Positions 7,089 to 44,411 of a stretch of 64,000 bases of DNA are shown in pieces (the first letter of the stretch is position 1; every line of letters begins with the position of its first letter). A model generated the notes under the pieces. That model saw nothing but the letters and a program-made list of their open reading frames with translations. It searched no databases and was not told the origin of the DNA. Location: the IMG/VR virus record IMGVR_UViG_3300021400_000027, positions 96,001 to 160,000 of that record; one strand, written 5' to 3'. The position numbers and the translations under genes were made by a program. The stretch comes from a virus (taxonomy: Duplodnaviria; Caudoviricetes).

Positions 7089-7180
7089 AAAAATTAGAGT
7101 CCTCTTTTTGTATATTTACATTAATTTCAGATAGGCAAGAAATTGCCCAAATTTTTTTATTTTAAAGGAGTTGATTTTTA

Positions 7181-8183: not shown

Positions 8184-10415
8184 ATGGCAGACTATAAATT
8201 CTTAGACGCAGACGGTCTCCAAGCCGTCTGGTCTATTATTGATGCTGAGAAGGTTGGAAAGAAAGAGAGAAGAGTAAGTGATAACGCTCCTCTTGGAGAA
8301 GTTTTTAATACCTATAGCACAAATAATTGGGAAGCTAATACGGCAAGTGCTGCCGGCTCTCATGCAGAAGGATAGCATACAACTGCAAGCGGATAGGCTG
8401 CTCATGCACAAGGAATAGATACAGTTGCAAGTGGTGTTGCATCTCATGCAGGTGGACAAAATACTACTGCAAGTGGTAATTATTCTATGGCTATTGGCCA
8501 AGGTACAGAGGCTAGTTCTGGTGGTTCTTTAGCTATGGGTGTTGGTACATGGACCGATAGTGCAGATGGAGCATTAGCACTAGGTAAATATAATAAGAAA
8601 GATGCATATAATTTCTTAATTGCTGCAGGTAATGGTACTGCGGCGGATGCACGTTCAAATGCGTTTACTGTTTATTCAAATGGTAATACTGAAATTGGCG
8701 GCAACGGAACAATTAGTGGTACATTAAGTGTTACTGGTGCAGGTACATTTAGCAGTAATTTAAGTGTAACTGGAACTGTTACTGCCGGCAGTATTTCAAT
8801 GATGTAGAGTGGAATTGCTACACCATTATCGAGTATTTTTGTTAGCTAGGTTGCCGGCAAAGGTTTGAGTACAGAAGATTTTACTGCTGCTCATAAGACT
8901 GCACTTGATGACTATATGGATAATAATTATGGCTCATTACTTTCAAACGTACAAACACTTGATGATTATTAGAGTAATGGTTATGTAAGTGCAAATAGTG
9001 AGAAATTAGTAAATGCCGGCTATGTAAATGAGTTTATTACTGATGCTACAAGTGGTTTTGTTGAAGAAGAAAGCGGTAAAGGATTAAGTACAAATGATTT
9101 TACTAATGCTTATAAATCTTTACTTGACACATATAATAGTAGCTATGTTAATTCGTTAGATACTTATGTAGCTAACTATGAATCTATTTTAGCAGATATT
9201 AAAAATAAAGATGATTATGCTTCTAATTATAGCTCTCAATTTGATGGAAAGTTAATTACTGCGGATTATTTAAATTCTGCACTTGAAGATAAAGTACCTT
9301 ATCATTTAAATGATAGTGATTTTATTGATAATGGCGGATATTACTCTGGAAATTCAGATGACCCAATTACTGCAGGTTATTTGAATGAATATATTACGAA
9401 CGCAACTTATGGTAAGTTGGGTAGTGCGAATGTATTGAATGGTACTTATGCAAATAATTATGTTGCTTCTACTTAGCAAAATAAATTAGTTACAGCAAGT
9501 TATGTACAAGTTAAAGCTAATACACTAAGTTCAAGAATTTCTTCATTGGAAAATGCTTCAACTGGAAAAGATAGTGGAAATATGCTTTAGCCTGGATATG
9601 AATAGTGGTATGAAGGTGATGAGTATTCCGGCAGAAGACAGAGTGATCATTATATTCCAGTCATTTCTAGAGAGGGTTATTTATATCCAAATAAAAATTG
9701 GCATATTTATTTTAGAACAGAGCCGGGAAATTAGGTAGAATTTACTATATGTGATAATAATAAAAATGCTTGTGGAGGAGCAATAATTAAGACTGCTGAT
9801 AGTTATGGTATAATAGACTTTGCGGTAACATTTGGAAGTCCTCGACAAAATCCTCCAATGTGGATTAATACTACGAATGAAGATGATGATTATAATTATG
9901 AAATGTATTATCTTAAATTTAAACTTTCTGTTAATAGTTTATATTCATCTTCATAGGTTTATGAATATGCTTTTTATGATTCTAGTTCTTATTATTTATC
10001 AGATGTAAACACTTTTAATGGTGGAGTTTATGCAGGAAATAAAGTTAATAATTTAATTAAATAGCTTTAGTTCCCATTTAAACGTCTGTTTGGTATCACC
10101 CCTGGTGAATTTGAAGATTAGGGATATTATGATGAAGGATAGTTTTCAGATTATAATGAACTTAATGAAATAGGCATATATGCTATATATGATGCTGAAA
10201 ATCCTGATAATAATCCAACTTTTGATAGTGAAGATGTAGCTATTGCCCCTGGTGAGTAGGTTTTATTAATTGTATTTCCGCCTTTAAGTATGTTTTTAAC
10301 ACAAGTAATGATTGTTGAAGATGTAATTTATATAAGAAGATTACATTATGATGATACTAATAATGCTTGGAGTTCTGCTGGTTGGAAAAAAATAACTACG
10401 ACTTCAGCATCATAA
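8184..10415 (+). CDS. long tail-fibre / receptor-binding protein, about 743 aa (TAG=Gln)
   Basis: Single frame with about 14 TAG and no TAA/TGA; SHAEG/TASG adhesin-head-like repeats, RSNAF, two GKGLSTxDFT motifs. Confidence 0.8.
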
Positions 10416-23061: not shown

Positions 23062-23100
23062 TTGATTTCTTTTTAAAAATAAAGTATAATATATATACAA
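23062..23100 (+). promoter_or_regulatory. sigmaA-type promoter (representative of about 25 similar copies)
   Basis: TTGATT-17 nt-TATAAT then ATATATACAA; near-identical copies at 23350 and 23819. Confidence 0.8.
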
Positions 23101-23117: not shown

Positions 23118-23187
23118 AAGACAGTTCAGCAACTCTTAAAAAAACATTAGCTTTTGGGGACTAATTAGTTTAAACGAAACTGTCTTG
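23118..23187 (+). ncRNA. CAGCA-stem RNA E1
   Basis: AAGACAGTT-CAGCAA...AACTGTCTT-G; internal hairpin with TTTGGG loop. Confidence 0.7.
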
Positions 23188-23193
23188 TTATTT

Positions 23194-23267
23194 GCGTCTG
23201 TAGCTCAGATGGTTAGAGCATCGCTCTTTTAAAGCGAGGGTCATGCGTTCAAATCGCATCAGACGCA
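23194..23267 (+). tRNA. tRNA-Lys(TTT)
   Basis: Cloverleaf; TCGCT-ctTTTaa-AGCGA. Confidence 0.9.
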
Positions 23268-23271
23268 CTAT

Positions 23272-23340
23272 GGAGATGCAGCAGGATATTTATTTATAAA
23301 TTTGAATCTGCATGAGGGTCAAATCCTTCCATCTCCACCA
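23272..23340 (+). ncRNA. truncated tRNA-like RNA with CCA
   Basis: GGAGATG/CATCTCC-ACCA acceptor and T-like arm; no recognisable D or anticodon arm. Confidence 0.55.
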
Positions 23341-23407
23341 TTTAAAAAATTGACTTTTAATTAAAAATTGTATATAATATATATACAATTTAAAAAGAAA
23401 TTTAAAT

Positions 23408-23478
23408 TGCCCGTTCGTCTAAAGGTAGGACAGCAGTTTTTGGCACTGCTGATAGGAGTTCGATTCTCTTACGGGCAA
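23408..23478 (+). tRNA. tRNA-Gln(TTG)
   Basis: TGCCCGT/ACGGGCA acceptor; GCAGT-ttTTGgc-ACTGC. Confidence 0.9.
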
Positions 23479-23486
23479 TCATAAAT

Positions 23487-23561
23487 GCAGGGAGAGCTTA
23501 TTAGGTACAAGCACTCGCCTTATAAGCGAGAGATAGTCGGGTTCAAATCCCACGCCCTGTA
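23487..23561 (+). tRNA. tRNA-Ile(TAT)
   Basis: CTCGC-ctTATaa-GCGAG; bulged T stem. Confidence 0.8.
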
Positions 23562-23563
23562 TA

Positions 23564-23635
23564 AAGACAGTTCAGCAACTCTTTTTAAGAACATTAGTAT
23601 TTGGGAACTGATTAGTTTAAAATGAAACTGTCTTG
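23564..23635 (+). ncRNA. CAGCA-stem RNA E2 (paralog of E1)
   Basis: Same stem as E1; internal loop ttTGGga. Confidence 0.7.
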
Positions 23636-23641
23636 TTATTT

Positions 23642-23714
23642 GCTCCCATAGCTTAGTTGGTAAAGCATCACACTTTTAATGTGAGGAGCGAGAGTTCGAG
23701 TCTCTCTGGGGGCA
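23642..23714 (+). tRNA. tRNA-Lys(TTT)
   Basis: TCACA-ctTTTaa-TGTGA. Confidence 0.9.
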
Positions 23715-23718
23715 TTAT

Positions 23719-23806
23719 GGAGATGTGGCAGAGTTGGTCGAATGCGGCACACTGCTAATGTGTTTGTCATTAAGTTGGCACGAAGGTTCGAATCCTTTCA
23801 TCTCCG
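23719..23806 (+). tRNA. tRNA-Ser(GCT)
   Basis: GCACA-ctGCTaa-TGTGT, long variable arm, G73. Confidence 0.9.
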
Positions 23807-23882
23807 TCAATTAAAAAATTGACTTTTAATTAAAAATTATGTATAATATATATACAATTTGATTTAAAAGTCAAATATAAAC

Positions 23883-23956
23883 TGCCCTGTGGACAAGTGG
23901 CTTAAGTTGGGAGTCTCTAAAACTCTAAGACCTCCGTTCGAATCGGAGCAGGGCAA
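23883..23956 (+). tRNA. amber suppressor tRNA(CTA), Gln-type
   Basis: TGCCCTG/CAGGGCA acceptor (U1-A72 like tRNA-Gln at 23408); GGAGT-ctCTAaa-ACTCT with anticodon at 23917-23919; T arm CTCCG-TTCGAAT-CGGAG. Confidence 0.9.
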
Positions 23957-23963
23957 TCGAACT

Positions 23964-24019
23964 AAGACGGTTCAGCAACTCTATTTATTTGATATGTGGC
24001 TTCAAATTTCTCCGTCTTG
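23964..24019 (+). ncRNA. CAGCA-stem RNA E3
   Basis: AAGACGG-TT-CAGCAA...CCGTCTT-G; hairpin with atGTGgc loop. Confidence 0.7.
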
Positions 24020-24116
24020 AAAGTTCAAATCAATTAAAAATTTGAAATTTCTTTTAAAATTTGCTATAATATTTATAGTAAATGAGAAAGAAAGCCAAAT
24101 TGAAAGGAGCAAGCCT

Positions 24117-24362
24117 ATGTATATTTCAGTTCAGTTTAAGAATAAAAACAAAGAGTTTGTTGGTAAGCATTATGACTATGAATTGCTTCCTGATGAAAAA
24201 GTACCGGCAGTTGGCTCTATTATCCGAATGATGGACGAAAATTATAATTTTGTGTGTTACGGCACAAGAGTTATGGTTACTTCCGTTAAAATGAAAAGTG
24301 CTTCGGCAAAGGTCGCTATCAGATGTCTTGAAACGACACTTGATGATGAACAGGACAGTTAA
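24117..24362 (+). CDS. hypothetical protein
   Basis: Start moved to ATG after RBS AAGGAG. Confidence 0.6.
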   Translation: MYISVQFKNKNKEFVGKHYDYELLPDEKVPAVGSIIRMMDENYNFVCYGTRVMVTSVKMKSASAKVAIRCLETTLDDEQDS

Positions 24363-24416
24363 AAATTTGAAATAAAAAATAAAATGAAGTATAATAATTA
24401 TAGAAATTAAAGAAAT

Positions 24417-24490
24417 GGGAGAGTAGCTCAGTCGGTGGTAGCAAACGGCTGTTAACCGTTAGGTCAAGGGTTCGAGTCCCTTCTCTCCCG
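24417..24490 (+). tRNA. tRNA-Asn(GTT)
   Basis: AACGG-ctGTTaa-CCGTT. Confidence 0.9.
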
Positions 24491-24500
24491 TTATTTAAAT

Positions 24501-24573
24501 GGGGTTGTAGTTCAGTTGGGAGAACGTTTGTCCTGCAAACAAAAGGTCGTGGGTTCGATTCCCACCTTCTCCA
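24501..24573 (+). tRNA. tRNA-Ala(TGC), atypical
   Basis: G3-U70; loop ccTGCaa (C33); two U-U acceptor mismatches. Confidence 0.75.
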
Positions 24574-24577
24574 CTTT

Positions 24578-24654
24578 GGGAACGTAGCTTAGTTGGTAAA
24601 AGCACTCGGCTGATAACCGAGAGACCAGCGGTTCGAGTCCGCTCGTTCCCACCA
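24578..24654 (+). tRNA. tRNA-Ile(GAT)
   Basis: CTCGG-ctGATaa-CCGAG; encoded CCA. Confidence 0.9.
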
Positions 24655-24657
24655 AAT

Positions 24658-24731
24658 GCGGAATTGGTGTAATGGTAGCATTTCTGCCTTCCAAGCAGAC
24701 AGTGGGGGTTCAAATCCCCTATTCCGCTCCA
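24658..24731 (+). tRNA. tRNA-Gly(TCC)
   Basis: TCTGC-ctTCCaa-GCAGA; CCA. Confidence 0.9.
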
Positions 24732-24733
24732 AT

Positions 24734-24818
24734 GGGTAAGTATGCAAACTGGTGAAGCGAGCTGTCTGTAAAACAGTTGCCATTGGCGTTGTAGGTTCGA
24801 GTCCTACCTTACCCACCA
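24734..24818 (+). tRNA. tRNA-Tyr(GTA)
   Basis: GCTGT-ctGTAaa-ACAGT, long variable arm, CCA. Confidence 0.9.
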
Positions 24819-24820
24819 TT

Positions 24821-25034
24821 AAGACAGTTACAGCAACTTCACATAGAAAAGATATTTATTTAGTAAATTTAGTTTGTGGAGTTCTCCCGTGATGTGATAG
24901 GGAGAAAGAATTAAAGTTCGCACTCAACTATAAAGTGCAATAAAAATTTATTTTCGCCGTATAGGTGGCGGAGTTGTTTCGCCGCCGGCGGGTTTCCCTT
25001 GACCTTATAAGGAATTTAAATTTTAGCTGTCTTG
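24821..25034 (+). ncRNA. CAGCA-stem RNA E4 (long, multi-hairpin cargo)
   Basis: AAGACAGTTA-CAGCAA...TAGCTGTCTT-G enclosing about 190 nt with at least four hairpins. Confidence 0.65.
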
Positions 25035-25440
25035 CATAGGTCGCCTAAATAAAGGCTTACCCTTTAAAGTTAAATTTATGCATGGTTTCAGGAAACCGAA
25101 AAATCCGAATCGAAGTTGAGCCGCCATTCAACTTCGTCCTGTGGCGGCAGGTTTTGAGGGTGGAGACCTTTTAAACTCCCGTTTGACGAACGTTATTAAA
25201 GTCTGACAGATGACATAATATTGCTCTAAATAGCCTCATCTAAGAATGGAATTTGAGCAGGTTAGAGTTTATCCTTAAAGCCAACCGGTTGAAAGTCCGT
25301 TGGACGGTAATAATCGTCCAAAGAATGGGAACTATTTGCTGACCTTCACGTGGTGTTTCTGAGTTTGGCTAACAGCAAAAAGTGATACTCGGCTTTATAG
25401 TTGAGAAAGTTATCCGAGTTAAACGCTTCTCAACAAAATT
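25035..25440 (+). ncRNA. candidate large structured ncRNA
   Basis: ORF-free, GC-richer, many helices and two apparent pseudoknots. Confidence 0.55.
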
Positions 25441-25452
25441 TATTAGATAGGA

Positions 25453-26037
25453 GTGATAACTTTGGTTGGAAATTGGGACATTAATGTTGTTGTAGGTAAG
25501 CTTCCGCAGAAAGTTGCTACTGCTTTTGCAAATCTTGGTGAAACAATTATTGGAGCAACATATACTCCAATTGCATATATTGGTTCACAGATTGTGAATG
25601 GAGTAAATCATGCGGTATTGGCTGAACAGACAATTATTACCGGCAGAGATACAAAGAATATCGTCTTAATTATTTTTAATGAAAAACCAGAGGGTGTTTC
25701 GTTAGTTAATATTGAGAGAGTTGTTGAAGGCGGTTTGGAACTCGGCGGAACAAAAATTGATGTAAAAACTGAAATTCCAGAAGATGCTCAGTCTGCATTC
25801 AATGAAGCAATTGGTAGCTTTGTTGGTTCTACAGTAGAACCCTTTGCATTAGTTGCAACTCAGGTTACAAAAGGTACGGACTACATCTTTGTAGCAACTG
25901 TTAAGCCTTTGGCACTTGAAGCAAAAGCAACTGTTGCTCTGGTTACGGTGAATACTCTTGAAAAGAGAATTTCCTTTATTGATGTGATTCAGCCGAATCT
26001 TAATAAAGCAAGTCTTGGATATGCTTTTACTTGGTAA
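25453..26037 (+). CDS. protein with internally duplicated domain (cystatin-like QxxxG motifs)
   Basis: PIAYIGSQIVNGVNH and PFALVATQVTKGTDY halves. Confidence 0.6.
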   Translation: MITLVGNWDINVVVGKLPQKVATAFANLGETIIGATYTPIAYIGSQIVNGVNHAVLAEQTIITGRDTKNIVLIIFNEKPEGVSLVNIERVVEGGLELGGTKIDVKTEIPEDAQSAFNEAIGSFVGSTVEPFALVATQVTKGTDYIFVATVKPLALEAKATVALVTVNTLEKRISFIDVIQPNLNKASLGYAFTW

Positions 26038-26134
26038 TAGGGAGATTAAATTCTCCCCTACCAATTAAAAATTTGAAATTTCTTTTAAAATTTGCTATAA
26101 TATTTATAGTAAATGAGAAAGAGATAAAAAAAAT

Positions 26135-26210
26135 AGCGGAGTGGAGCAGTTGGTAGCTCGCAAGATTCATTATCTTGAGGTCGTAGGTTCAAGTCCTGCC
26201 TCCGCAACCA
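26135..26210 (+). tRNA. tRNA-Met(CAT), initiator-like
   Basis: 1:72 mismatch; CAAGA-ttCATta-TCTTG; CCA. Confidence 0.85.
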
Positions 26211-26217
26211 GCACTTA

Positions 26218-26348
26218 AAGATACGTACAGCAAACCACTTAGCTTAGGAATTTTAATCCCCGTGATGCAGGTTCGAGTCCTGTCTTTACAGTCTTTACTG
26301 TAAAGTAGCTTAATTGGCAGAGCAGGTAAATGCAAACAACGTATCTTG
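26218..26348 (+). ncRNA. CAGCA-stem RNA E5 with circularly permuted tRNA-Lys(TTT)
   Basis: AAGATACGT/ACGTATCTT stem; order is anticodon loop, T arm, acceptor hairpin, D arm. Confidence 0.8.
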
Positions 26349-26354
26349 TTAAAT

Positions 26355-26429
26355 GCCTCATTAGCTTAGATGGTCGAAAGCACCCGACTCTTAATCGGGG
26401 GAGCATGGGTTCAAATCCCATATGGGGTA
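26355..26429 (+). tRNA. tRNA-Lys(CTT)
   Basis: CCCGA-ctCTTaa-TCGGG. Confidence 0.9.
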
Positions 26430-26433
26430 CTAT

Positions 26434-26510
26434 GGCGGTGTAGTTCAGTAGTGTAGAACATCGGACTGTCACTCCGAAGGTCGCCGGTTCGAGTCCGGTC
26501 ATCGTCGCCA
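26434..26510 (+). tRNA. tRNA-Asp(GTC)
   Basis: TCGGA-ctGTCac-TCCGA; GCCA end. Confidence 0.9.
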
Positions 26511-26512
26511 TA

Positions 26513-26636
26513 AAGACACATCAGCAAAACAATTCTTTTGCATTGGGAGCATGAGTTAGAGGTTCGATTCCTCTATCCACGACCAAATTATACTGTGGAT
26601 TGGTGAAATGGTATCACGCATTATAAGTGTGTCTTG
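26513..26636 (+). ncRNA. CAGCA-stem RNA E6 with circularly permuted tRNA-Pro(TGG)
   Basis: AAGACACA/TGTGTCTT stem; 3' half ending ACCA precedes the 5' half. Confidence 0.8.
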
Positions 26637-26642
26637 TATTTT

Positions 26643-26715
26643 GCTTCTGTAGCACAATTGGTAGTGCATCTCACTTGTAATGAGAGGGTTGTAGGTTCGA
26701 GTCCTATCAGAAGCT
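26643..26715 (+). tRNA. tRNA-Thr(TGT)
   Basis: TCTCA-ctTGTaa-TGAGA. Confidence 0.9.
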
Positions 26716-26719
26716 CTAT

Positions 26720-26793
26720 GCCGGTGTAGCTCAGTTGGTAGTAGCGTATGCCTGAAGAGCATAGCGTCAGAGGTTCGATTCCTCTCGCCGGCA
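26720..26793 (+). tRNA. tRNA-Phe(GAA)
   Basis: TATGC-ctGAAga-GCATA. Confidence 0.9.
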
Positions 26794-26799
26794 TCAGTT

Positions 26800-26926
26800 A
26801 AGATTCGTCAGCAGAAGTATTTCAAAATTTACATACACCAAATGCCAGTATGTATGGTGTAACGGTAGCACACTCACCAGTTAAGTGAGAGGTAAAGGTT
26901 CAACTCCTTTGGCAGAACGAATCTTG
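26800..26926 (+). ncRNA. CAGCA-stem RNA E7 with permuted tRNA-Asn(GTT)-like cargo
   Basis: AAGATTCGT/ACGAATCTT stem; TACATAC-ACCA precedes GTATGTA plus D, anticodon and T arms. Confidence 0.75.
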
Positions 26927-26930
26927 TTTC

Positions 26931-27002
26931 CGCCCTATCGTCTAACGGTTAGGACATCGCACTTTCTATGCGAAAATCCCAGTTCGAGTCTGGGTAGGGT
27001 GA
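26931..27002 (+). tRNA. tRNA-Glu(TTC)
   Basis: TCGCA-ctTTCta-TGCGA (U37). Confidence 0.85.
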
Positions 27003-27049
27003 TTAAGCGTTATTAAAACGCAAAAATAAGTAAAAGGAGAAGAGAGGTC

Positions 27050-27553
27050 ATGAATACTAAAAAATTTTATCGTGGTAATGGTCAAATCGTAACCTACGAT
27101 GGAATGATGAAAGTAATTGCAGACTACATCATGGAAGATACGAAAAGTGATTATGAAATCACAGTAGGCACAGATAGCCAAAACCATGACCTAACAAAAA
27201 TGGTTGAAGTTATCGCTGTACATCGTGTTGGAAAAGGTGGTATCTTCTTCTACAGAACAGAATATGTTCGTAAAATTCGAGTTTTAAAAGAAAAAATTGT
27301 TGAAGAAACATCTCGTTCTTTAGAGAACGCAGAGGGGTTATTAGATACAGTTCAACTTTATTTACTCGAAAAAGATATTGATATTGACAAACTCAATATT
27401 CATTTTGTAATTCATTGTGATATTGGTCATGCCGGCAAGACACAAGCACTTATTAAAGAAATTGTTTCTTGGGTTCAGTCTTGTGGTTATGAATGTCAGA
27501 TTAAGCCAGATAGCTATGCTGCGTCTGGTATTGCAAACAAAATTTCTAAGTGA
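27050..27553 (+). CDS. RNase H-like YkuK (DUF458) family protein
   Basis: VGTDSQ, R.GKGG.FFY, ET..S, IHCDIG..G.T, IKPDSYAAS..A. Confidence 0.85.
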   Translation: MNTKKFYRGNGQIVTYDGMMKVIADYIMEDTKSDYEITVGTDSQNHDLTKMVEVIAVHRVGKGGIFFYRTEYVRKIRVLKEKIVEETSRSLENAEGLLDTVQLYLLEKDIDIDKLNIHFVIHCDIGHAGKTQALIKEIVSWVQSCGYECQIKPDSYAASGIANKISK

Positions 27554-27558
27554 ACAAT

Positions 27559-27662
27559 GCGTTGATAGCCAAGCATTAAAAGGCACTAAGACAATAGGAG
27601 TCCTTGTCGTGGGAACTTCACCCACATGGAATGCGTGTGATTGAAACTGCACACTCAACGCT
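27559..27662 (+). ncRNA. enlarged tRNA-like RNA
   Basis: GCGTTGA/TCAACGC acceptor-like stem, D-like arm, three further hairpins. Confidence 0.55.
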
Positions 27663-27665
27663 TTT

Positions 27666-27749
27666 GCCGCTGTGGTGGAATTGGCAGACACAAGGGACTT
27701 AAAATCCCTCGGAGTAAAATCCGTACCGGTTCAAATCCGGTCAGCGGCA
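27666..27749 (+). tRNA. tRNA-Leu(TAA)
   Basis: AGGGA-ctTAAaa-TCCCT, long variable arm. Confidence 0.9.
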
Positions 27750-27753
27750 CTAT

Positions 27754-27814
27754 AAGACGGTTACAGCAATCTTTAAGGATTTATTTGGTTCGATTCCAGA
27801 GGTTTTCCGTCTTG
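27754..27814 (+). ncRNA. CAGCA-stem RNA E8 (T-arm cargo)
   Basis: AAGACGG/CCGTCTT stem; TGG-TTCGATT-CCA T-loop hairpin. Confidence 0.7.
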
Positions 27815-27845
27815 AAGATTTTATTTTGAAAAGGAGATAATCTAA

Positions 27846-28460
27846 ATGAGAAAAGTTATTATTGTTATTTTATCCGTTATTGCTATTGCGACAATTGTAC
27901 TGCCTGAGGGAGAGTACGGTCCGGTAACTATTACTTCTTACGCCGCAGAGGGACAGTTTAATTCAAATGGATTACAGGCTAATAACCTTGGTATTCCTAT
28001 TAATGAATTTGTTGACGCTCCGGCAACAGCACCAATTCCTTTTGGTCAGCTTGTTGATGCTCCTATGACTGCACCAGTATCAGTTCCTTCTGATAAGTTT
28101 GTTGATGCTCCTATGACTGCACCGTCAGCGGAGACTTCTATGACTACAACTACAAAAGAAACTACAACTACAGCTGAACTTGTGTCAGCTCCAGAAACCG
28201 CACCAGAAGTTTTAGATACTGCTCCAGCGACAGCACCAACAACTACTACCTCAACCACTACTTCAACTACTACTACAGTAACAACCACCACAACTACAGC
28301 TACCACTTCGGCTTCAACCGTTTTGGCAGATATGAAGTGTGCAGATGGTGCTGAATTAAGAGTAAGTGAAGATTCAAACGGTAAGGTTGAAATTGAAGCA
28401 TCAGGCGAAAAAGACTTACTTAAAGAAATTTTTGGTTTTATTAAAGACCTGTTTTCTTAA
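27846..28460 (+). CDS. secreted Thr/Pro-rich protein with (D/S/T)APxTAP repeats
   Basis: Signal peptide, five APxTAP repeats, poly-Thr tract. Confidence 0.7.
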   Translation: MRKVIIVILSVIAIATIVLPEGEYGPVTITSYAAEGQFNSNGLQANNLGIPINEFVDAPATAPIPFGQLVDAPMTAPVSVPSDKFVDAPMTAPSAETSMTTTTKETTTTAELVSAPETAPEVLDTAPATAPTTTTSTTTSTTTTVTTTTTTATTSASTVLADMKCADGAELRVSEDSNGKVEIEASGEKDLLKEIFGFIKDLFS

Positions 28461-28479
28461 GCGGTTCGCCGCTTAATAT

Positions 28480-28553
28480 CGGGGATTACGTCAATTTGGT
28501 AGACGGCGGCATTTGGGATGCCGAGGCTGCGAGTTCGAGTCTCGCATCTCCGA
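28480..28553 (+). tRNA. tRNA-Pro(TGG)
   Basis: CGGCA-ttTGGga-TGCCG. Confidence 0.9.
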
Positions 28554-28643
28554 CTAAAGCACCTAATGCGGATATGGTGCTATATTTTCATGGTGATTAC
28601 CTCCTAAAATTGCCAAAGTTGTGTCGCTTGGCGGCACAACGCT

Positions 28644-28722
28644 GGGGATATGGTGGAATGGCAGACACGCTTGCCTTAGAAGCAAGTGCTTCGGCGTGAG
28701 AGTTCAAGTCTCTCTATCCCCA
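28644..28722 (+). tRNA. tRNA-Leu(TAG)
   Basis: CTTGC-ctTAGaa-GCAAG, long variable arm. Confidence 0.9.
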
Positions 28723-28729
28723 CTAAAAT

Positions 28730-28802
28730 GGAGTCGGTAGTGTAATGGCTAACACGTCAGTTTGTGGCACTGATAATGAGAGTTCGATTCTCTCCCTTCT
28801 CC
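28730..28802 (+). tRNA. tRNA-His(GTG)
   Basis: Encoded G-1:C73; TCAGT-ttGTGgc-ACTGA; two acceptor mismatches. Confidence 0.85.
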
Positions 28803-28891
28803 CTTGGTGCGCAGGTTTGATGCAATGCGACATGTTCAGAAATCCGTGTACTATAGAGTATTCCTGCACAATCTATAGCGGTATTTAATTA

Positions 28892-29037
28892 AAGACACTA
28901 CAGCAAAACATTTCTAAATGGACTGTAAATCCGTTGGGGAAGTCCCTTCGTAGGTGCAAATCCTATCCTCGCCCACCAAAATATGGGCGAGTAGCCAAGT
29001 AGACAAAGGCGACGGACCATATATTAAAAGTGTCTTG
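28892..29037 (+). ncRNA. CAGCA-stem RNA E9 with circularly permuted tRNA-Tyr(GTA)
   Basis: AAGACACT/AGTGTCTT stem; GGA-ctGTAaa-TCCGT, variable arm, T arm, CTCGCCC-ACCA, linker, GGGCGAG, D arm. Confidence 0.85.
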
Positions 29038-29041
29038 AAAT

Positions 29042-29122
29042 GTGGAGATGCCAGAGTGGTTGATTGGGACGGACTGCAACTCCGTTGCGTAAGCCTCGTC
29101 GGTTCGAATCCGACTCTCCACT
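29042..29122 (+). tRNA. tRNA-Cys(GCA) with long variable arm
   Basis: ACGGA-ctGCAac-TCCGT; U73; 12-nt variable region. Confidence 0.8.
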
Positions 29123-29127
29123 TTAAT

Positions 29128-29201
29128 CTCCCCTTAGCTCAATTGGATAGAGCAACGGATTTCTAATCCGTAGGTTGAAGGTTCGAGTCCTTCAGGGGAG
29201 G
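29128..29201 (+). tRNA. tRNA-Arg(TCT)
   Basis: ACGGA-ttTCTaa-TCCGT. Confidence 0.9.
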
Positions 29202-29209
29202 CTTAATTT

Positions 29210-29283
29210 GTCGCTTTAGTTCAATTGGATTAGAACCTCCGGCTACGAACCGGAAGATACGAGTTCAAGTCTTGTAGGCGGCG
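29210..29283 (+). tRNA. tRNA-Arg(ACG)
   Basis: TCCGG-ctACGaa-CCGGA. Confidence 0.9.
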
Positions 29284-29287
29284 TAAA

Positions 29288-29361
29288 AAGACAACTTACA
29301 GCAATTTAATTATATCGCCTTAAGTTTTTCCTGTACAGTGATATGTCAGGGTGTTGTCTTG
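29288..29361 (+). ncRNA. CAGCA-stem RNA E10
   Basis: AAGACAAC-TTA-CAGCAA...GTTGTCTT-G. Confidence 0.7.
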
Positions 29362-29369
29362 ATTTAATT

Positions 29370-29458
29370 GGAAGATTAATTCAGCCGGCGCTGAACCTCG
29401 TCTTGAAAACGAGTGGTGCGGTGAAACGCATGGGGCTCGACACCTCAGTCTTCCGCCA
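29370..29458 (+). tRNA. tRNA-Ser(TGA)
   Basis: CTCGT-ctTGAaa-ACGAG, long variable arm, GCCA; atypical T loop. Confidence 0.85.
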
Positions 29459-29466
29459 CTAACCTT

Positions 29467-29501
29467 AAGACCTTACGGCATTAAATTAAATAAAGGTCTT
29501 G
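29467..29501 (+). ncRNA. minimal CAGCA-stem variant E11
   Basis: AAGACCTT-A-CGGCA...AAGGTCTT-G just upstream of the Ro-like gene promoter. Confidence 0.5.
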
Positions 29502-29607
29502 AAGTTAAAATAATTTGAGTTTTTAAAAATTTTTTGCTATAATATTTATAGTGAAAAGGAAAAAGTCCGAATTAACTTTAACTTACAATGAAAAGGAGAA
29601 ATGTGTA

Positions 29608-31077
29608 ATGAGTTTTGTAAATCAGTTCAAAAGAATGTCCGATATGACCACCACTGAAAATGGAGGTCTGGCTTATAAGTCTACCGGCTCTGACCTTTTA
29701 TCTCTGTTCGCTAATATTGGCGGTATGAGAGATAGAAATGATAGCGATATTATTTCTGCTTGGAAACTCGCAAGAAAGGAAGATAAGCTGTTAGCAGATA
29801 ACCTTATTCTCTATTCTCGTGATATTCGTAATGCCGGACTTGGTGAGCGTAGAATTGGCAGACTCTTATTAAAAGAGCTTGCTATGGTTGACCCTCGTAA
29901 GGTAGAGCGTAATCTCCAGAAGATTGTCGATGCCGGCAGATGGGACGACTTGTTCGTATTTGAGGGAACTCCTGCATGGGATGAAACCGTTCGCTTTATC
30001 CAGAATCAGTTCCGTACTGATGTCAATGGAATGAAGAAGAACGAACCTATTTCTCTGCTTGCAAAGTGGCTTCCTTCTATTAACGCTTCTTCTGAAAAGA
30101 CTAAGCGTCTGGCTCGTACTTTCTGCACCTTGTTCAGCTTAACTCCTCGTACTTATCGTAAGAGCCTCTCCGCTATGCGTAAGTACATTGATGTAGTTGA
30201 ACGTAAGATGTCAGCTGGTCAGTGGAATGAAATTAACTTTGAAACTGTTCCTTCTGTTGCAATGTCTCGTTATATTGCAACCTACAATAAGCGTTGTCAG
30301 GAACGCTTTGCCGAATACAAGGCTTCCCTTGAAAAGGGCGAAGCTAAGGTTAATGCGGCAACTCTCTTCCCTTATGACATTGCTTTAAAGTTCATAGGCA
30401 ATTGTAATGGCTATGGTTGTAGATATACTCATCTGGATGCAGTTGATGAAGCACAGTGGAAGGCTCTGCCTAACTATGTTTCTGACGAGTTCGATGTAGT
30501 TGTAATGGCAGACGTATCCGGCTCTATGTACTCTTCTGATAGTCGTCCTATGGCAACTTCTATTGGTCTGGCAACTTACTTTGCTCAACGCAACAAAGGT
30601 GCATATCACAATATGTATTTAAGTTTCACTGACCGTCCTCATTTCATTACCCTGCGTGACGAGATGTCGCTGGAAGATTGCTTAAAATACGTGTTAAAGG
30701 AGGGTGTTGGCTACAATACTGACCTTGACCTTGCTTTTGAAGCTATCTATAAAGTGGCAAGCACTGCCGGAGAAGCACCTAAAGCTCTTGTCATTATTAG
30801 TGATATGGAGATTGATTCTTTCTGCGGAGAGAATTATGAATCCATTGCTCAAAAATGGCAGAGAATTTACGCTAAAGCTGGATTAACTGCTCCTAAGTTA
30901 ATTTGGTGGAATGTAGATTCCAGAGAGGGTAGAGTTCTCGCTCGTCAGGACGAGAATGTAGGATTTGTATCAGGTTATGGTGTCGGTCCGTTCAAGAATC
31001 TTCAATCTCTGATTGAAAAAGACGCTTATACCGCAATGGTAGAAATCCTCTCTCAGGACGCTTTCACTTGGAATTAA
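29608..31077 (+). CDS. Ro60/TROVE-related protein with C-terminal vWA (DUF2828-type)
   Basis: TTTENGG..Y.ST, RDIR..G.GER, GRWDDL, LLAKWLPS, MIDAS ADVSGSM, ISDME, WNV; start moved to ATG 29608 after AAGGAG. Confidence 0.8.
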   Translation: MSFVNQFKRMSDMTTTENGGLAYKSTGSDLLSLFANIGGMRDRNDSDIISAWKLARKEDKLLADNLILYSRDIRNAGLGERRIGRLLLKELAMVDPRKVERNLQKIVDAGRWDDLFVFEGTPAWDETVRFIQNQFRTDVNGMKKNEPISLLAKWLPSINASSEKTKRLARTFCTLFSLTPRTYRKSLSAMRKYIDVVERKMSAGQWNEINFETVPSVAMSRYIATYNKRCQERFAEYKASLEKGEAKVNAATLFPYDIALKFIGNCNGYGCRYTHLDAVDEAQWKALPNYVSDEFDVVVMADVSGSMYSSDSRPMATSIGLATYFAQRNKGAYHNMYLSFTDRPHFITLRDEMSLEDCLKYVLKEGVGYNTDLDLAFEAIYKVASTAGEAPKALVIISDMEIDSFCGENYESIAQKWQRIYAKAGLTAPKLIWWNVDSREGRVLARQDENVGFVSGYGVGPFKNLQSLIEKDAYTAMVEILSQDAFTWN

Positions 31078-31099
31078 GGCGGTTACGCCGCCTTGATTT

Positions 31100-31314
31100 T
31101 AGGCTCTATACAGCAAAATCAATAGAAATATACATCAAATTGATTTTAGTTAAATAATTGGCATTTACCTGTAGTTGTCAAAACCTTGTAACAGGTTAAG
31201 TTACCGCACACTTCTTTTGTGTAAATGAAGTCCCTCCCGTTCCAGTTTGGGATTGTATAACTGGTGATAGTGGAATAAATTTTCTACCGAAGTCTGAGAA
31301 CAGCAAGAGCCTAG
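31100..31314 (+). ncRNA. CAGCA-stem RNA E12 (long cargo)
   Basis: TAGGCTCT-ATA-CAGCAA...AGAGCCTA-G with several internal hairpins. Confidence 0.65.
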
Positions 31315-31319
31315 TCTTA

Positions 31320-31367
31320 ACGATTCTTCAGCAGAATTGTTTCAAGAATTGAAAAAAAAGAATCGTG
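31320..31367 (+). ncRNA. CAGCA-stem RNA E13
   Basis: ACGATTCTT-CAGCAG...AAGAATCGT-G. Confidence 0.65.
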
Positions 31368-33475: not shown

Positions 33476-34399
33476 ATGAAACAGAAACATTATGTAGATA
33501 TTGAACGTTTTAAGGCTAAATATGACGAAGCCATCAGCGTTGGTGACCTCATTCATGTAAGTGAGAAAATCGATGGTGCGAATGCTTCTTTCACCTATGA
33601 CCCTGAAACCGGCACAGTAAAGGCTTTCAGTCGTAAGAATGAACTCTCTGCTGACAATACACTTCGAGGATTCTATAATTACGTTCAGAGTATGCCTCTT
33701 GATTTCGTTAAGCGAGTAGTAACAAATAACGGCAAGTGGGTAATTTTCGGAGAATGGCTTGTCCCTCATTCAGTTAAATATCCTGATGAAGCATATCATC
33801 ATTTTTACATCTATGATATATGGGACACAGAAAATGAAATCTGGTGTGACCAGAATTTCGTAAATCTCATGTGCTCTATATTTAAATTATATTCTGTTGA
33901 TGTGCGTCAGCCGGAATGCTTCTACTATGGAAAATTTAATGGTTGGGAAGAGCTTTATAAACTTGTAGGTAAAACCGCCATTGGGGCTACCCCGTGCGGC
34001 GAAGGTATCGTTATAAAGAACCAATCCGTACTTGACCAGAAGAATCGCCGACTGCCTACTTACATTAAAATTGTAAGTGAAAAGTTTGCAGAAGTTCATA
34101 AAAATAAGCCTAAGACTGTTGACCCCGAAGTGTTGAAACAGCGTGAAGCTTCTCGTCAGCTTGCGGCAACAATTGTCACTGAACAGCGTGTTCAGAAATT
34201 CCTGAATAAATTTGTTGACGAGGGTATCCTCCCTGAAGACTGGGACGAACGCAATTTCGGAACAATTGCAAAGACCTTACCTCGTGAAATTTACAATGAC
34301 TGTGTAAAGGAAGAGCCGGAAACAACTAATCAAATTGAGGATTTCGGCAAAATTTGTGGCAAACTTACTATGGAACTTGTAAGGAGTCTAATAAAATGA
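33476..34399 (+). CDS. RNA ligase, Rnl2-like family
   Basis: Motif I EKIDGAN, FSRK, FGEW, FYIYDI, GEGIVIK, KIV. Confidence 0.85.
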   Translation: MKQKHYVDIERFKAKYDEAISVGDLIHVSEKIDGANASFTYDPETGTVKAFSRKNELSADNTLRGFYNYVQSMPLDFVKRVVTNNGKWVIFGEWLVPHSVKYPDEAYHHFYIYDIWDTENEIWCDQNFVNLMCSIFKLYSVDVRQPECFYYGKFNGWEELYKLVGKTAIGATPCGEGIVIKNQSVLDQKNRRLPTYIKIVSEKFAEVHKNKPKTVDPEVLKQREASRQLAATIVTEQRVQKFLNKFVDEGILPEDWDERNFGTIAKTLPREIYNDCVKEEPETTNQIEDFGKICGKLTMELVRSLIK

Positions 34400-35146: not shown

Positions 35147-36268
35147 ATGGCACAGCAATTATTAGAGTTACAAAAATTTATTCTGGCTAATCCTTCTGAT
35201 TGGAAGGAAAAATTGCAGGCTAAACCCTACTGCCTGAAAATTCAGGAAGATGATGATTTAGTATTGTTCAAGTATTCCCAGATTGATTCTGACTTCTCTG
35301 AGACAATTTGCCGTGAAGCCAGAGGGGTTATTCTTGAACGTGATACTTGGAAAATTGTAAGATTTGCTTTTCGTAAATTTTTTAATCTTGGTGAACCTCA
35401 TGCCGATAAAATTGATTGGGAATCTGCTACTGCGACTTCTAAAGAGGACGGCTCTTTAATTTCTCTTTACTACTATAAAGGCTGGCAAATTGCTACTAAT
35501 GGTAATCTGTATGCTTGGAACGCTCCTTTAGGTGTCGCCGGATTCCAGACTTTTGAAGATTTAGCTATGGAAGCACTTTTAAAATATAATGTAGATTTTC
35601 ATTCTTTGAATAAGAATTATACTTATACTTTTGAACTTTGCTCACCTTATAATCAAATCGTATGTTCCTATCCCGATATTCAGCTTTTCCATACTGTTAC
35701 TGTTGATAATAGAACTCTTGAAGAAGTTGACGCTGAAATAGGAGTACCTAAACCTAAATTTTATGATTTAAATTCCAAAGTTGAGTATGAGGAATTGGTT
35801 AATTCTTTACCGGAAAATACTGAAGGTATCGTTGTTCGTGACAAGTTTGGTAAACGAGTAAAAATTAAGACTAAACTCTATTTTGAACTTCATAGACTTG
35901 TAAATAATGGGCATATTGATGTAGAAAAAGCATTGCAGTTAATTCTGGAAAATGACTACGAGGAACTTCTCGCTTATTATCCTAATTATACTAATTTCTT
36001 TTCACAGGTCAAGGACGCATATAAAAATGCTCTTGATTATATTAAAGAAGTAAAAAGTTGGACTACAGAGTGGGAGAGGGAAAATCTCTTTACTGCTACT
36101 CGTGAAGGATTCGCTACTGCTCGTAAAATCTTCGCCGCCGCCGTAAAAGATAAACCTATTCCTTCCCTATACTTTTTAGCTTATGACGGCAAACTGAAAA
36201 AATTTGAAGATGATTTAACTGCAAAGAAAATTTTATCTGTATTCAGAAACTATTTTGAGGGGATTTAA
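35147..36268 (+). CDS. RNA ligase, T4 Rnl1 (RnlA)-like family
   Basis: EARGVI, KFFN, KEDGSL, FEL.SPYN.IV, EGIVV, VKIK...Y. Confidence 0.85.
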   Translation: MAQQLLELQKFILANPSDWKEKLQAKPYCLKIQEDDDLVLFKYSQIDSDFSETICREARGVILERDTWKIVRFAFRKFFNLGEPHADKIDWESATATSKEDGSLISLYYYKGWQIATNGNLYAWNAPLGVAGFQTFEDLAMEALLKYNVDFHSLNKNYTYTFELCSPYNQIVCSYPDIQLFHTVTVDNRTLEEVDAEIGVPKPKFYDLNSKVEYEELVNSLPENTEGIVVRDKFGKRVKIKTKLYFELHRLVNNGHIDVEKALQLILENDYEELLAYYPNYTNFFSQVKDAYKNALDYIKEVKSWTTEWERENLFTATREGFATARKIFAAAVKDKPIPSLYFLAYDGKLKKFEDDLTAKKILSVFRNYFEGI

Positions 36269-43646: not shown

Positions 43647-44411
43647 ATGGATAGAACTACAATCGGCAATAGAATGAAAGGCTATGAAGCCATTTCTAAA
43701 AATTTCTTAATGAGAAGAACACCTGCTATCGTACGCATTGATGGAAAGAGCTTCCACACCTTTACTCGTGGCTTTGATAAACCGTTTGATGAAGATTTTA
43801 TGACCGCCATGCAAGAAACCATGAAGTACCTTTGTGAAAATATTCAGGGTTGTGTTCTCGGTTACACTCAGTCTGATGAAATTACCTTAGTTCTTTGTGA
43901 TTACCAGACTCTTGAAACAGACGCTTGGTTCGGCTATAATGTTCAGAAGATGGTTTCTGTTTCTGCTTCAATGGCTACTTTTGCTTTTACTTCTGCTTTC
44001 AGTAAAATTTTAAGAGAAATGTGGGCTTCCAACGATATTTCTTTCGAAGGTAGAATTCAAATGATTGGAGAAAAACTTGAAAAAGGCGTTTTCTTCGATT
44101 CTCGTGCATTTTCTCTGTCTAAAGAAGAAGTTTGTAATTGCTTAATTTGGCGACAGCAGGATGCAACAAGAAACTCCATTCAGGCAGCTGGTCATGCATA
44201 TTTCTCTCAAAAAGAACTCCACGGCTTAAATTGCAGTCAAATTCAAGAGAAATTGTTTTCTGAAGCCGGCATTAACTGGAATGACTACTCTGTGCCGGAA
44301 AAGAGAGGCTCTTGCTGTATCAAAGAAGATGGTAAGTGGGTTCTTGATTACAACATTCCTATCTTTTCTCAGGACAGAAGCTACGTGAACTCTAGAATTA
44401 CGTTTGAATGA
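43647..44411 (+). CDS. Thg1-like (tRNA-His guanylyltransferase family) 3'-5' polymerase
   Basis: RMK.YE, RIDGKSFHTFT, YTQSDEI, FDSR, WRQQDA.RNS, KRG. Confidence 0.92.
   Translation: MDRTTIGNRMKGYEAISKNFLMRRTPAIVRIDGKSFHTFTRGFDKPFDEDFMTAMQETMKYLCENIQGCVLGYTQSDEITLVLCDYQTLETDAWFGYNVQKMVSVSASMATFAFTSAFSKILREMWASNDISFEGRIQMIGEKLEKGVFFDSRAFSLSKEEVCNCLIWRQQDATRNSIQAAGHAYFSQKELHGLNCSQIQEKLFSEAGINWNDYSVPEKRGSCCIKEDGKWVLDYNIPIFSQDRSYVNSRITFE

Follow-up and report, generated by a model that had tools for sequence, protein, structure and literature searches.

What are the thirteen stem-bounded elements that are interspersed among the transfer RNA (tRNA) genes of a rumen phage and that also flank its gene for a DUF2828 protein? 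The question is raised by a window of 64,000 nucleotides (nt)—the whole stretch of DNA that was analyzed here, corresponding to positions 96,001 to 160,000 of the IMG/VR record IMGVR_UViG_3300021400_000027 (Duplodnaviria; Caudoviricetes)—whose source record is a 179,787-bp rumen phage with terminal repeats. We consider it probable that the 13 elements (E1 to E13) are Y-RNA-like partner RNAs of a Ro60 paralog, the DUF2828 protein, and that they display parts of tRNAs. The constant portion of each element, which portion we refer to as the handle, is read here as a putative docking site for the DUF2828 ring protein, by analogy with the docking of the Y-RNA terminal stem plus CGAA on Ro60; this reading is based on the Y-RNA-like architecture, the location beside the gene of a Ro60-fold protein, and the existence of at least one tRNA-like member. 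Y RNAs combine a terminal stem with a short single-stranded motif and a variable module, and at least one of them is tRNA-like (PMC4201824, PMC12135203).

The Handle Elements and Their Array

The first-pass annotation had described 13 elements of a single design, namely a 7-10 bp end-to-end stem, C(A/G)GCA placed 0-3 nt after the 5' strand, and a G trailing the 3' strand. When the search was scripted as a perfect stem of at least 7 nt, a gap of 0-3 nt, C(A/G)GCA, and the reverse complement of the stem within 260-320 nt, all 13 were recovered exactly where they had been placed, a G followed every 3' strand, and the complete design was present in 13 of the 13. The elements, along with the protein gene that the last of them flank, are the following (handles are written as 5' strand/3' strand plus the trailing G; MFE, minimum free energy; z, fold z-score):

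E1, 23118-23187, + strand: handle AAGACAGUU/AACUGUCUU+G, CAGCAA; cargo hairpin with a UUUUGGGG loop resembling a Pro-type anticodon loop
E2, 23564-23635, + strand: paralog of E1 with an identical handle; cargo hairpin with compensatory changes relative to E1; MFE z -2.5
E3, 23964-24019, + strand: handle AAGACGG/CCGUCUU+G; short cargo; directly 3' of the suppressor tRNA(CUA)
E4, 24821-25034, + strand: handle AAGACAG/CUGUCUU+G; 190-nt cargo; limits uncertain
E5, 26218-26348, + strand: handle AAGAUACGU/ACGUAUCUU+G; tRNA-Lys(UUU) permuted at 28/29, with a closed acceptor hairpin
E6, 26513-26636, + strand: handle AAGACACA/UGUGUCUU+G; tRNA-Pro(UGG) permuted at 28/29; acceptor loop consisting of ACCA plus linker
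E7, 26800-26926, + strand: handle AAGAUUCGU/ACGAAUCUU+G, CAGCAG; tRNA-Asn(GUU), opened by its permutation at the border of T stem and 3' acceptor strand
E8, 27754-27814, + strand: handle AAGACGG/CCGUCUU+G; T-arm-like hairpin cargo with a UUCGAUU loop
E9, 28892-29037, + strand: handle AAGACACU/AGUGUCUU+G; tRNA-Tyr(GUA) with a long variable arm, permuted at 28/29; z -3.9
E10, 29288-29361, + strand: handle AAGACAAC/GUUGUCUU+G; short structured cargo; a tRNA-Ser(UGA)-like gene comes next
E11, 29467-29501, + strand: minimal hairpin of the handle, AAGACCUU-A-CGGCAU...AAGGUCUU+G; a short way upstream of the DUF2828 promoter; z -4.2
DUF2828 + vWA gene, 29608-31077, + strand: 489 aa; predicted Ro60 fold
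Handle-like hairpin, 31076-31095, + strand: AAGGCGG-UUACG-CCGCCUU+G, without CAGCAA; overlaps the DUF2828 stop codon
E12, 31100-31314, + strand: handle UAGGCUCU/AGAGCCUA+G; 189-nt cargo; 3' part of the DUF2828 transcription unit
E13, 31320-31367, + strand: handle ACGAUUCUU/AAGAAUCGU+G, CAGCAG; short cargo

Eleven of the elements start with AAGA and end with UCUUG, the deviants being E12 and E13, and the motif that follows the 5' strand reads CAGCA(A/G) in 12 and CGGCAU in E11. Applied with CAGCA(A/G) to both strands of the whole genome, the script gave 17 matches, 12 of which fell, all on the + strand, within the 8.2-kb array; the mononucleotide-shuffled genome gave 1-7. Folding by MFE retained the terminal stem in 11 of the 11 short and medium-sized elements tested. 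The + strand bears 24 tRNA genes between 23194 and 29284, and the window also contains a suppressor tRNA with the anticodon CUA at 23883-23956—one or two such genes being present in the relatives L001, L002, and G005—and a transfer-messenger RNA (tmRNA); open reading frames obtained by TAG readthrough served for annotation only. Elements within the tRNA array lie 2-8 nt 3' of one tRNA and 5-8 nt 5' of the next, while the others flank the gene at 29608-31077. Seven strong sigma-70-type promoters divide the region into units; E1 sits 3' of a promoter at 23062-23090 and 5' of tRNA-Lys, and E12 and E13 belong to the same transcription unit as the 29608 gene. The elements do not resemble intrinsic terminators, a scan of this genome for handles in the reversed, intron-like order gave none in the tRNA region, and by eye we found in the handle no K-turn, hammerhead, hairpin-ribozyme, or bulge-helix-bulge (BHB) motif.

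Covariation of the Handle and Its Boundaries

The covariation of the handle is strong: among 65 scanner matches from this phage and its relatives, a few of which are chance matches with long spans, 48 distinct stems were found, all perfectly paired, which result bears out the initial observation that the helix changes in sequence while its pairing is kept. In this rumen lineage the motif was CAGCAA in 61 of the 65 matches and CAGCAG in the other four, CAGCA having been fixed by the search motif; in cultured phages CAGCAA stood in 28 of 28, the search having required the whole of it. Across lineages the sequence of the stem is free, and the constant features are CAGCAA, a stem of about 7 bp, a linker of 2-3 nt that usually ends in UA, and the trailing G, of which features CAGCAA and the G were both demanded by the cross-lineage search.

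The boundaries of E4 are doubtful. Its stem was recovered by the script, but RNA contigs running from ~24832 to ~25314 traverse the proposed 3' strand, and a global fold of 24819-25325 leaves the terminal stem unused. The stretch at ~24832-25314, which overlaps E4, is a highly structured non-coding sequence of ~480 nt (fold z -5.0 for 24819-25325) that, in each of the four metatranscriptome runs considered below, is covered more deeply by RNA than any other part of the region, and matched nothing in Rfam.

Two further genes of the array merit description. The first, at 23271-23340, is a tRNA-like gene missed by both ARAGORN and Rfam. Its acceptor stem is GGAGAUG/CAUCUCC, the 5' strand of which is immediately followed by CAGCAG; the middle part is atypical and A/U-rich, a T arm is present, and ACCA is encoded. 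The gene resembles a fourteenth handle RNA whose acceptor stem doubles as the handle, with A and not G after the stem. The other, at 29370-29454 between E10 and E11, resembles a tRNA-Ser(UGA) gene and has a long variable arm; ARAGORN did not call it, and it scored 44.8 bits against the Rfam tRNA-Sec model (threshold 47; E 3.6e-8).

The DUF2828 Protein

The gene at 29608-31077 had been annotated on the first pass as DUF2828-type TROVE plus vWA. Pfam assigns its product to DUF2828 (2.4e-33) and DUF7788, with a weak VWA_2 match; DUF2828 and the vWA domain were thus borne out, but Pfam TROVE (PF05731) gave no match at E <= 0.01, and a phmmer search against the sequences of the Protein Data Bank (PDB) returned no Ro60 and nothing else of relevance. 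An AlphaFold model built from an alignment of 66 homologs reached a predicted local distance difference test (pLDDT) value of 92.5 and a predicted template-modeling (pTM) score of 0.91, the single-sequence run giving a pLDDT of 41.6. The top 12 matches listed by Foldseek for this model were all Ro60/TROVE chains, the alignments spanning the full length of the DUF2828 protein (508-555 columns), with E values of 9e-10 to 6e-5 and TM scores of 0.40-0.61 to Ro60 structures; they comprised the Ro60 of the Thermus phage phiLo (9KOP, 9L5Y), Xenopus Ro (1YVR, 1YVP, 2I91), Deinococcus Rsr (2NVO), and human Ro60. In the predicted fold a ring of HEAT repeats is joined to a vWA domain bearing the MIDAS motif (metal-ion-dependent adhesion site), as in Ro60, and within the D-x-S-x-S of that site the residues D302, S304, and S306 are invariant in the 66 homologs. 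From the structural matches, taken together with the missing TROVE match, we take the DUF2828 protein to be, on its modeled fold, a Ro60-fold paralog and not a sequence-level member of TROVE. At least 706 phage genomes on deposit contain a 'Ro-like' gene of the DUF2828 type, the carriers including Felix O1-type coliphages, Listeria P100-type phages, Staphylococcus and Enterococcus Herelleviridae, Vibrio phage KVP40, cluster L mycobacteriophages, Campylobacter phages, and cyanophages.

Co-occurrence of the Handle with DUF2828

Handles accompanied DUF2828 in all ten of the close relatives examined and likewise in all ten of the distant lineages, which are cultured phages. The former, ten metagenomic relatives whose DUF2828 protein is 50-75% identical to that of this phage, have 2-6 handles each on the strand of the gene, and likewise exhibit a mini-hairpin just upstream of the DUF2828 gene (E11-type, in the equivalent position at L001 9946, L002 9947, and L122 355) and an element of the U(A/C)G(A/G)C type directly downstream of it. 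The distant lineages, whose DUF2828 proteins share 27-36% identity with that of this phage, are Bacillus phage Tsamsa, E. coli phage CL1 (Felix O1-type), Listeria phage WIL-1, Mycobacterium phage LeBron, Vibrio phage KVP40, Campylobacter phage CP30A, Enterococcus phage EFDG1, Staphylococcus phage S-CoN_Ph7, Sinorhizobium phage phiN3, and Synechococcus phage B23. Their loci gave 28 handle matches on the strand of the gene and none on the other; the background, which amounts to 0.014 matches per kb and strand over 2.1 Mb of viral DNA of unrelated origin (the chance-match remainder of two exact 15-mer scans of IMG/VR), would lead us to expect 0.16-0.25 per locus. The handles directly flank the DUF2828 gene in the Listeria, Mycobacterium, Staphylococcus, Campylobacter, and Synechococcus phages, and in WIL-1, LeBron, and CP30A they do so with no tRNA nearby. 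Conversely, five of six IMG/VR records found through the motif alone encode DUF2828.

Two contrasts indicate that the handle tracks DUF2828 and not tRNA arrays or ligases as such. The complete genome of E. coli phage CL1 contains DUF2828 and four handles, and in it we found no Rnl1, PF09414, or RtcB ligase; phage T4, which encodes RNA ligases, has a tRNA cluster and lacks DUF2828, and no handle was found in its tRNA region. Among five distant DUF2828 phages tested for Rnl1, four possessed it. A megablast of the 8.4-kb region against deposited phages returned tRNA pieces only.

Two loci of other phages may be recorded here. In Bacillus phage Tsamsa (L260, 3864-5998) the 'gaps' of the annotated tRNA array hold three unannotated CAGCAA handle RNAs and a CAGCUA variant, and an unannotated structured stretch of ~390 nt stands in front of a DUF2828 gene labelled 'RNA-binding protein'. 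In G005, a related TAG-recoding phage, the locus L257 (G005:C1:103000-122745) shows handles in a small tRNA array, followed by genes for a metallophosphoesterase and a BrxL-like ATPase.

The Cargo: Permuted tRNAs and tRNA Parts

The enclosed cargo had been characterized on the first pass as mostly unrelated, which description did not hold, most of the cargo deriving from tRNA in the form of entire permuted tRNAs, of T arms, and of hairpins like an anticodon arm. In E5, E6, and E9 the order is anticodon arm, variable region, T arm, 3' acceptor strand, linker, 5' acceptor strand, and D arm, and rejoining at 28/29 produces cloverleaves that ARAGORN reads as perfect Lys(UUU), Pro(UGG), and Tyr(GUA) tRNAs; E7, once de-permuted, gives a full Asn(GUU) cloverleaf. 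The acceptor loops of E6, E7, and E9 retain ACCA plus a linker of 6-8 nt, whereas the acceptor of E5 is a tight hairpin without CCA. Every permuted tRNA doubles a normal tRNA of the same array, and the perfection of their stems implies that they are under selection and are not debris. As to the smaller cargos, the hairpin loop of E1 and E2 resembles a Pro anticodon loop, and E8 contains a T-arm-like hairpin.

Related arrangements occur elsewhere. The relative L001 has an ortholog of E7, with a permuted Asn tRNA, at 5525, an ordinary tRNA within a handle at 7167, and, at 8488-8728, a 241-nt handle RNA in which a permuted tRNA houses a complete one, possibly with an insertion, after its ACCA and before its 5' acceptor strand, which nesting implies RNase P/Z processing inside the acceptor loop. 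Permuted tRNA-like calls were obtained in 6 of 14 close-relative sequences and in 4 of 10 distant lineages, in addition to Tsamsa by eye, the distant phages with a tRNA-like element being Tsamsa, CL1, LeBron, EFDG1, and phiN3; brute-force de-permutation gave ambiguous anticodons for YrlA-like cargos that have no real anticodon arm. Comparison by blastn of E4, E10, E12, and the spacers with the relatives revealed no conserved cargo, and an alignment of E12-type elements showed conservation in patches only, among them a CCGAAGU block found solely near the 3' end of such elements.

Transcripts and Head-to-Tail Joints

Evidence for transcription came from contigs of four rumen or gut metatranscriptome runs belonging to two studies. 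The cover was very uneven, with discrete ends for E7 and E12 and with parts of the array bare of RNA in some of the runs; the depth varied from 0 to 83 across the 8-kb region—which variation points to RNA and not to carried-over DNA—and was greatest at ~24832-25314 and at E12.

Three contig joints connect a downstream to an upstream position. The joint 31318->31096, delimiting 223 nt, was present in the runs labelled X4 and X18 (two studies), and 2 nt off in X5; the X18 contig consists of those 223 nt and an overlap of 30 nt, which is what a closed cycle should give at k = 31. This joint encloses E12 with 4 nt on each side, the 5' end (31096) coming directly after the G of the hairpin at 31076-31095 and the 3' end directly before E13. 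The joint 26930->26794, around E7, was seen in X4, and an X17 contig coincides to the base with 26794-26930. Of these two ends, 26794 is the base that comes right after the tRNA-Phe discriminator, an RNase Z site, and 26930 is base -1 of tRNA-Glu, an RNase P site. The third joint, 29122->28805 with one extra C (X4), connects the tRNA-Cys end with the tRNA-His trailer, E9 lying inside it. The joints prove discrete RNAs with ends from tRNA processing. They suggest, in addition, circles sealed by a ligase acting on 5'-phosphate and 3'-OH ends, although head-to-tail template switching during reverse transcription (RT) could also give such contigs, and a linear X17 contig (31093-31369) crosses the end of E12.

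Five other joints (24078->24544, 24479->24445, 24482->24585, 23800->27673, and 27584->27631) resemble assembly chimeras between similar tRNAs or strain variants, and were left unused. With respect to the last of these, contigs of X4 and X18 skip 46 nt (27584-27631) between the PF04308 gene and tRNA-Leu, which gap may reflect a strain variant, a chimera, or a processed form; several contigs switch to unrelated sequence at 27561.

Comparison with Known RNAs

A comparison with YrlA had been suggested on the first inspection of the sequence. The Rfam YrlA model (RF02553, model positions 1-114) aligned end to end with the cargo of E5 at 26239-26355 (E 9e-4 over the 8.8-kb region), but at 31.6 bits, below the gathering score of 69; no other element matched, and at E <= 5-10 this sub-threshold YrlA was the sole relevant match in Rfam. 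The phage RNAs are like YrlA, which is known from bacteria and mycobacteriophage (PMC4201824), in that their ends pair in a terminal stem adjoined by a short conserved single-stranded motif, in that their genes lie on the same strand as, and within a few kb of, a gene for a Ro60-fold protein (here the DUF2828 paralog), and in that they contain a tRNA-like module, whose T arm, closed acceptor, and D arm follow one another in the permuted order of YrlA; E5, E6, E7, and E9 can be de-permuted to perfect tRNAs. They differ in the protein, which falls in Pfam DUF2828 and not TROVE; in the motif, which is CAGCAA after the 5' strand and not GNCGAA; in the number of RNAs, up to 13 per phage genome versus one or two; and in being embedded in tRNA arrays. 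Furthermore, whole tRNAs with their anticodon loops retained occur among the phage cargos, next to bare T or anticodon arms. The tRNA-like modules recall YrlA, in which one RNA per species is tRNA-like. The phage system would work like Ro60 and its Y RNA but stands outside that family at the level of sequence: DUF2828 is not TROVE, CAGCAA is not CGAA, and the Rfam score is sub-threshold.

A second point of comparison is the Thermus phage phiLo, which likewise encodes a Ro60 fold, with the genes of the Y-like RNAs Yrl1 and Yrl2 just upstream, and whose Ro60 is the best structural match of the DUF2828 model (E 9e-10, TM 0.55-0.58). The phiLo protein, however, is a canonical Ro60 homolog with two RNAs that carry CGAA in an internal bulge, no tRNA array or permuted tRNAs having been reported (PMC12135203).

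The Class I RNAs of dictyostelids have a 6-bp stem that joins the ends and is conserved in pairing and not in sequence, start with AAG and end with CUGU, and contain, immediately 3' of the 5' strand, an 11-nt motif that is conserved and unstructured, the rest being variable (PMC7919456). The architecture of the phage elements appears to be the same, with AAGA...UCUUG(U) as against AAG...CUGU, and the invariant T3, C6, C9, A10, and A11 of that motif seem to fit ..UUACAGCAA, in a comparison made by description. Class I RNAs differ in being products of eukaryotic nuclear genes with their own promoter, in having no tRNA cargo, and in that their only known binder is the RRM protein Rnp1A; nor did the Rfam model RF01414 match E3, E8, E10, or E11 at E <= 10.

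Circularly permuted tRNA genes are found in Cyanidioschyzon merolae and in some archaea, the algal pathway having circular intermediates, and two-piece tmRNA arises from permuted ssrA genes; to our knowledge, bacteria lack a tRNA splicing endonuclease. As in such permuted genes, in the phage elements the 3' half precedes the 5' half with NCCA and a linker in between, and canonical cloverleaves result upon rejoining, but the joints observed here keep the handle and rebuild no tRNA (the E7 joint lying outside the handle), and inspection revealed no BHB. Archaeal C/D box small RNAs, which the ATP-dependent RNA ligase Rnl of Thermococcus circularizes in an Rnl-dependent manner (PMC9014305), are also small structured RNAs with paired ends, and the phage, for its part, encodes a PF09414 RNA ligase; the two cases differ in RNA family, protein partners, and domain of life, and the circularity of the phage RNAs is suggested by contigs only. 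Full-text searches on DUF2828, on phage YrlA or Ro-like systems, and on phage circular RNA yielded no description of the RNAs analyzed here.

Proposed Function and Alternatives

We propose that the elements constitute a family of small non-coding RNAs built as handle plus cargo; each computational check called for on the first pass spoke in favor of the Y-RNA-like reading. The handle comprises an end-to-end helix of ~7 bp, 2-3 nt, a single-stranded CAGCAA on the 5' side, and the G after the 3' strand; the cargo is exchangeable and mostly tRNA-derived, consisting of permuted tRNAs with intact anticodon loops and closed acceptors, of T arms, and of anticodon-arm-like hairpins. Transcription of the RNAs would take place as part of the tRNA operons and of the DUF2828 unit, and they would be excised by the enzymes that process the neighboring tRNAs, at least some of them being then joined head to tail, and the resulting particle might display tRNA parts as baits or adaptors in a program of tRNA repair or defense against nucleases. 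Such a role in repair or conflict is suggested by the nearby genes for a PF04308 nuclease-like protein, two RNA ligases, a Thg1-like enzyme, the tmRNA, and the tRNAs. Anticodon nucleases attack Lys, Tyr, and Asn tRNAs, and the intact anticodon loops for Lys, Tyr, and Asn, carried here by bodies that cannot be charged, suggest that these RNAs are candidate baits for such enzymes. Another possible role would be the recruitment of host polynucleotide phosphorylase (PNPase) by analogy with phiLo, whose Ro60 forms complexes with the PNPase of its host (PMC12135203).

Several observations weigh against a Y-RNA-like partnership of this kind. No Rfam family reaches its threshold on the elements, a scan at gathering thresholds returning tRNAs and tmRNA only; the motif of the handle is CAGCAA instead of the Y-RNA GNCGAA/CGAA; and the protein, as stated, gave no match to the TROVE model. 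The genome G005 (122 kb, CheckV 75% complete) has two handles and no DUF2828 in its assembled part. The contrasts of CL1 and T4 argue for DUF2828, yet each is a single genome, and since DUF2828, tRNA arrays, and RNA-repair genes travel together, co-occurrence alone cannot fully separate a partner of the protein from a feature of the array. Finally, a 7-bp stem plus one base resembles an acceptor stem plus discriminator, so that the enzymes of tRNA processing could be what reads the handle.

An alternative function of the handle would be chiefly that of a signal for circularization or maturation, in that the stem would bring together the 5'-phosphate and the 3'-OH left by RNase P and RNase Z for sealing by an Rnl1-type or PF09414 ligase, while permuted circles would reopen at the acceptor loop (NCCA plus linker) as CCA-ending tRNAs with an extra arm, the Ro-like protein being optional or acting at a later stage. 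This explanation, which can coexist with the partner-RNA reading, we judge to be unlikely. In its favor stand the three back-joints, the E7 ends directly after the tRNA-Phe discriminator and at base -1 of tRNA-Glu, the ACCA and linker kept in the loops of E6, E7, and E9, and the acceptor-loop processing implied by the nested tRNA of L001; in addition, two RNA ligase genes lie 2-5 kb downstream, syntenic in relatives, and Rnl1 is present in four of the five distant DUF2828 phages tested. Contigs alone, however, do not tell circles from RT template switching on abundant small RNAs, the linear X17 contig runs across the end of E12, and the third joint, in enclosing a whole tRNA-Cys, looks opportunistic and not designed. 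Moreover, the junctions keep the whole handle without rebuilding a tRNA at 28/29 or showing a BHB to the eye, most cargos are not tRNAs, the E5 acceptor lacks CCA, and CL1 has handles but no RNA ligase gene. A more elaborate scheme combines both ideas—namely, that the RNAs are true circles, excised by RNase Z and RNase P, aligned at their ends by the handle, and sealed by a phage ligase, with reopening at the acceptor loop then turning the four permuted tRNAs into CCA-ending tRNAs that are equipped with an arm for docking on Ro60 and would feed a Ro60-like particle serving as bait for anticodon nucleases—and must be regarded as doubtful.

That the elements are simply the punctuation of a tRNA operon seems to us quite improbable. 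On this account the stem-loops would guide or block host RNases (P, Z, Y, E, and 3' exonucleases) or stabilize intermediates, with no dedicated protein, and the cargo would be the decaying debris of tRNA duplications. The tight spacing after one tRNA and before the next and the acceptor-like stem with its trailing G would accord with such a function, and so would the E12 RNA, whose 5' end follows a handle-like hairpin plus G and whose 3' end precedes the E13 stem, RNase Y having a preference for a G followed by an A/U-rich run; but CAGCAA is invariant from the phages of Actinobacteria to cyanophages though the RNase sets of the hosts differ, handles stand beside DUF2828 with no near tRNA in WIL-1, LeBron, and CP30A, the tRNA cluster of T4 has none, the perfect stems of the permuted tRNAs bespeak selection, and intrinsic terminators look different. 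The modular cargo, the terminal inverted repeat of each element, and the many copies per genome might, in turn, recall small mobile DNA elements of the miniature inverted-repeat transposable element (MITE) type or recombination cassettes with captured tRNA fragments. We find that idea scarcely credible: the 'repeats' differ among copies with compensating changes, which pattern fits RNA pairing and not transposase sites; all copies are on the transcribed strand, with CAGCAA on one side only and G on the other; target-site duplications and transposase genes were not found; and the elements are expressed as discrete RNAs.

Under the partner-RNA reading, which we prefer, the conserved handle RNA provides DUF2828 proteins with a candidate ligand, and, if that reading is true, the Ro60/Y-RNA principle extends to a second protein family, and many of the 'gaps' and 'pseudo-tRNAs' of phage tRNA arrays would be explained. 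The present window is the richest example examined, with 13 RNAs and four complete permuted tRNAs; what is new in it is the size of the panel, the verification of those four tRNAs, the contrasts offered by a ligase-free and a DUF2828-free phage, and the joints in the transcripts. A role as bait or adaptor, if confirmed, would constitute a new layer of phage-host conflict over tRNA, and circles with reopening would, if real, be without a precedent known to us in a bacterial virus, both as a maturation pathway for permuted tRNAs and as a dedicated family of circular RNAs. The likeness to the Class I RNAs of Dictyostelium offers a lead for a question that has been open for 20 years.

Neighboring Genes

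The genes in the window to which reference was made above are located as follows:

27050-27553, + strand: PF04308 RNaseH-like (YkuK-type) gene, inside the array
33476-34399, + strand: RNA ligase gene, PF09414; candidate sealing enzyme if the RNAs are circular
35147-36268, + strand: T4 Rnl1-type RNA ligase gene, PF09511
40820-41161: tmRNA; two further tRNAs at 42764 and 43291
43647-44411: Thg1-like 3'-5' nucleotidyltransferase gene (PF04446, 4.8e-33), another tRNA-end repair enzyme

The PF04308 family also adjoins DUF2828 in Vibrio phage KVP40 and in the relatives L120 and L123, and the neighborhoods of the relatives add phosphoesterases, polynucleotide kinase (PNK)-like kinases, and Band_7.

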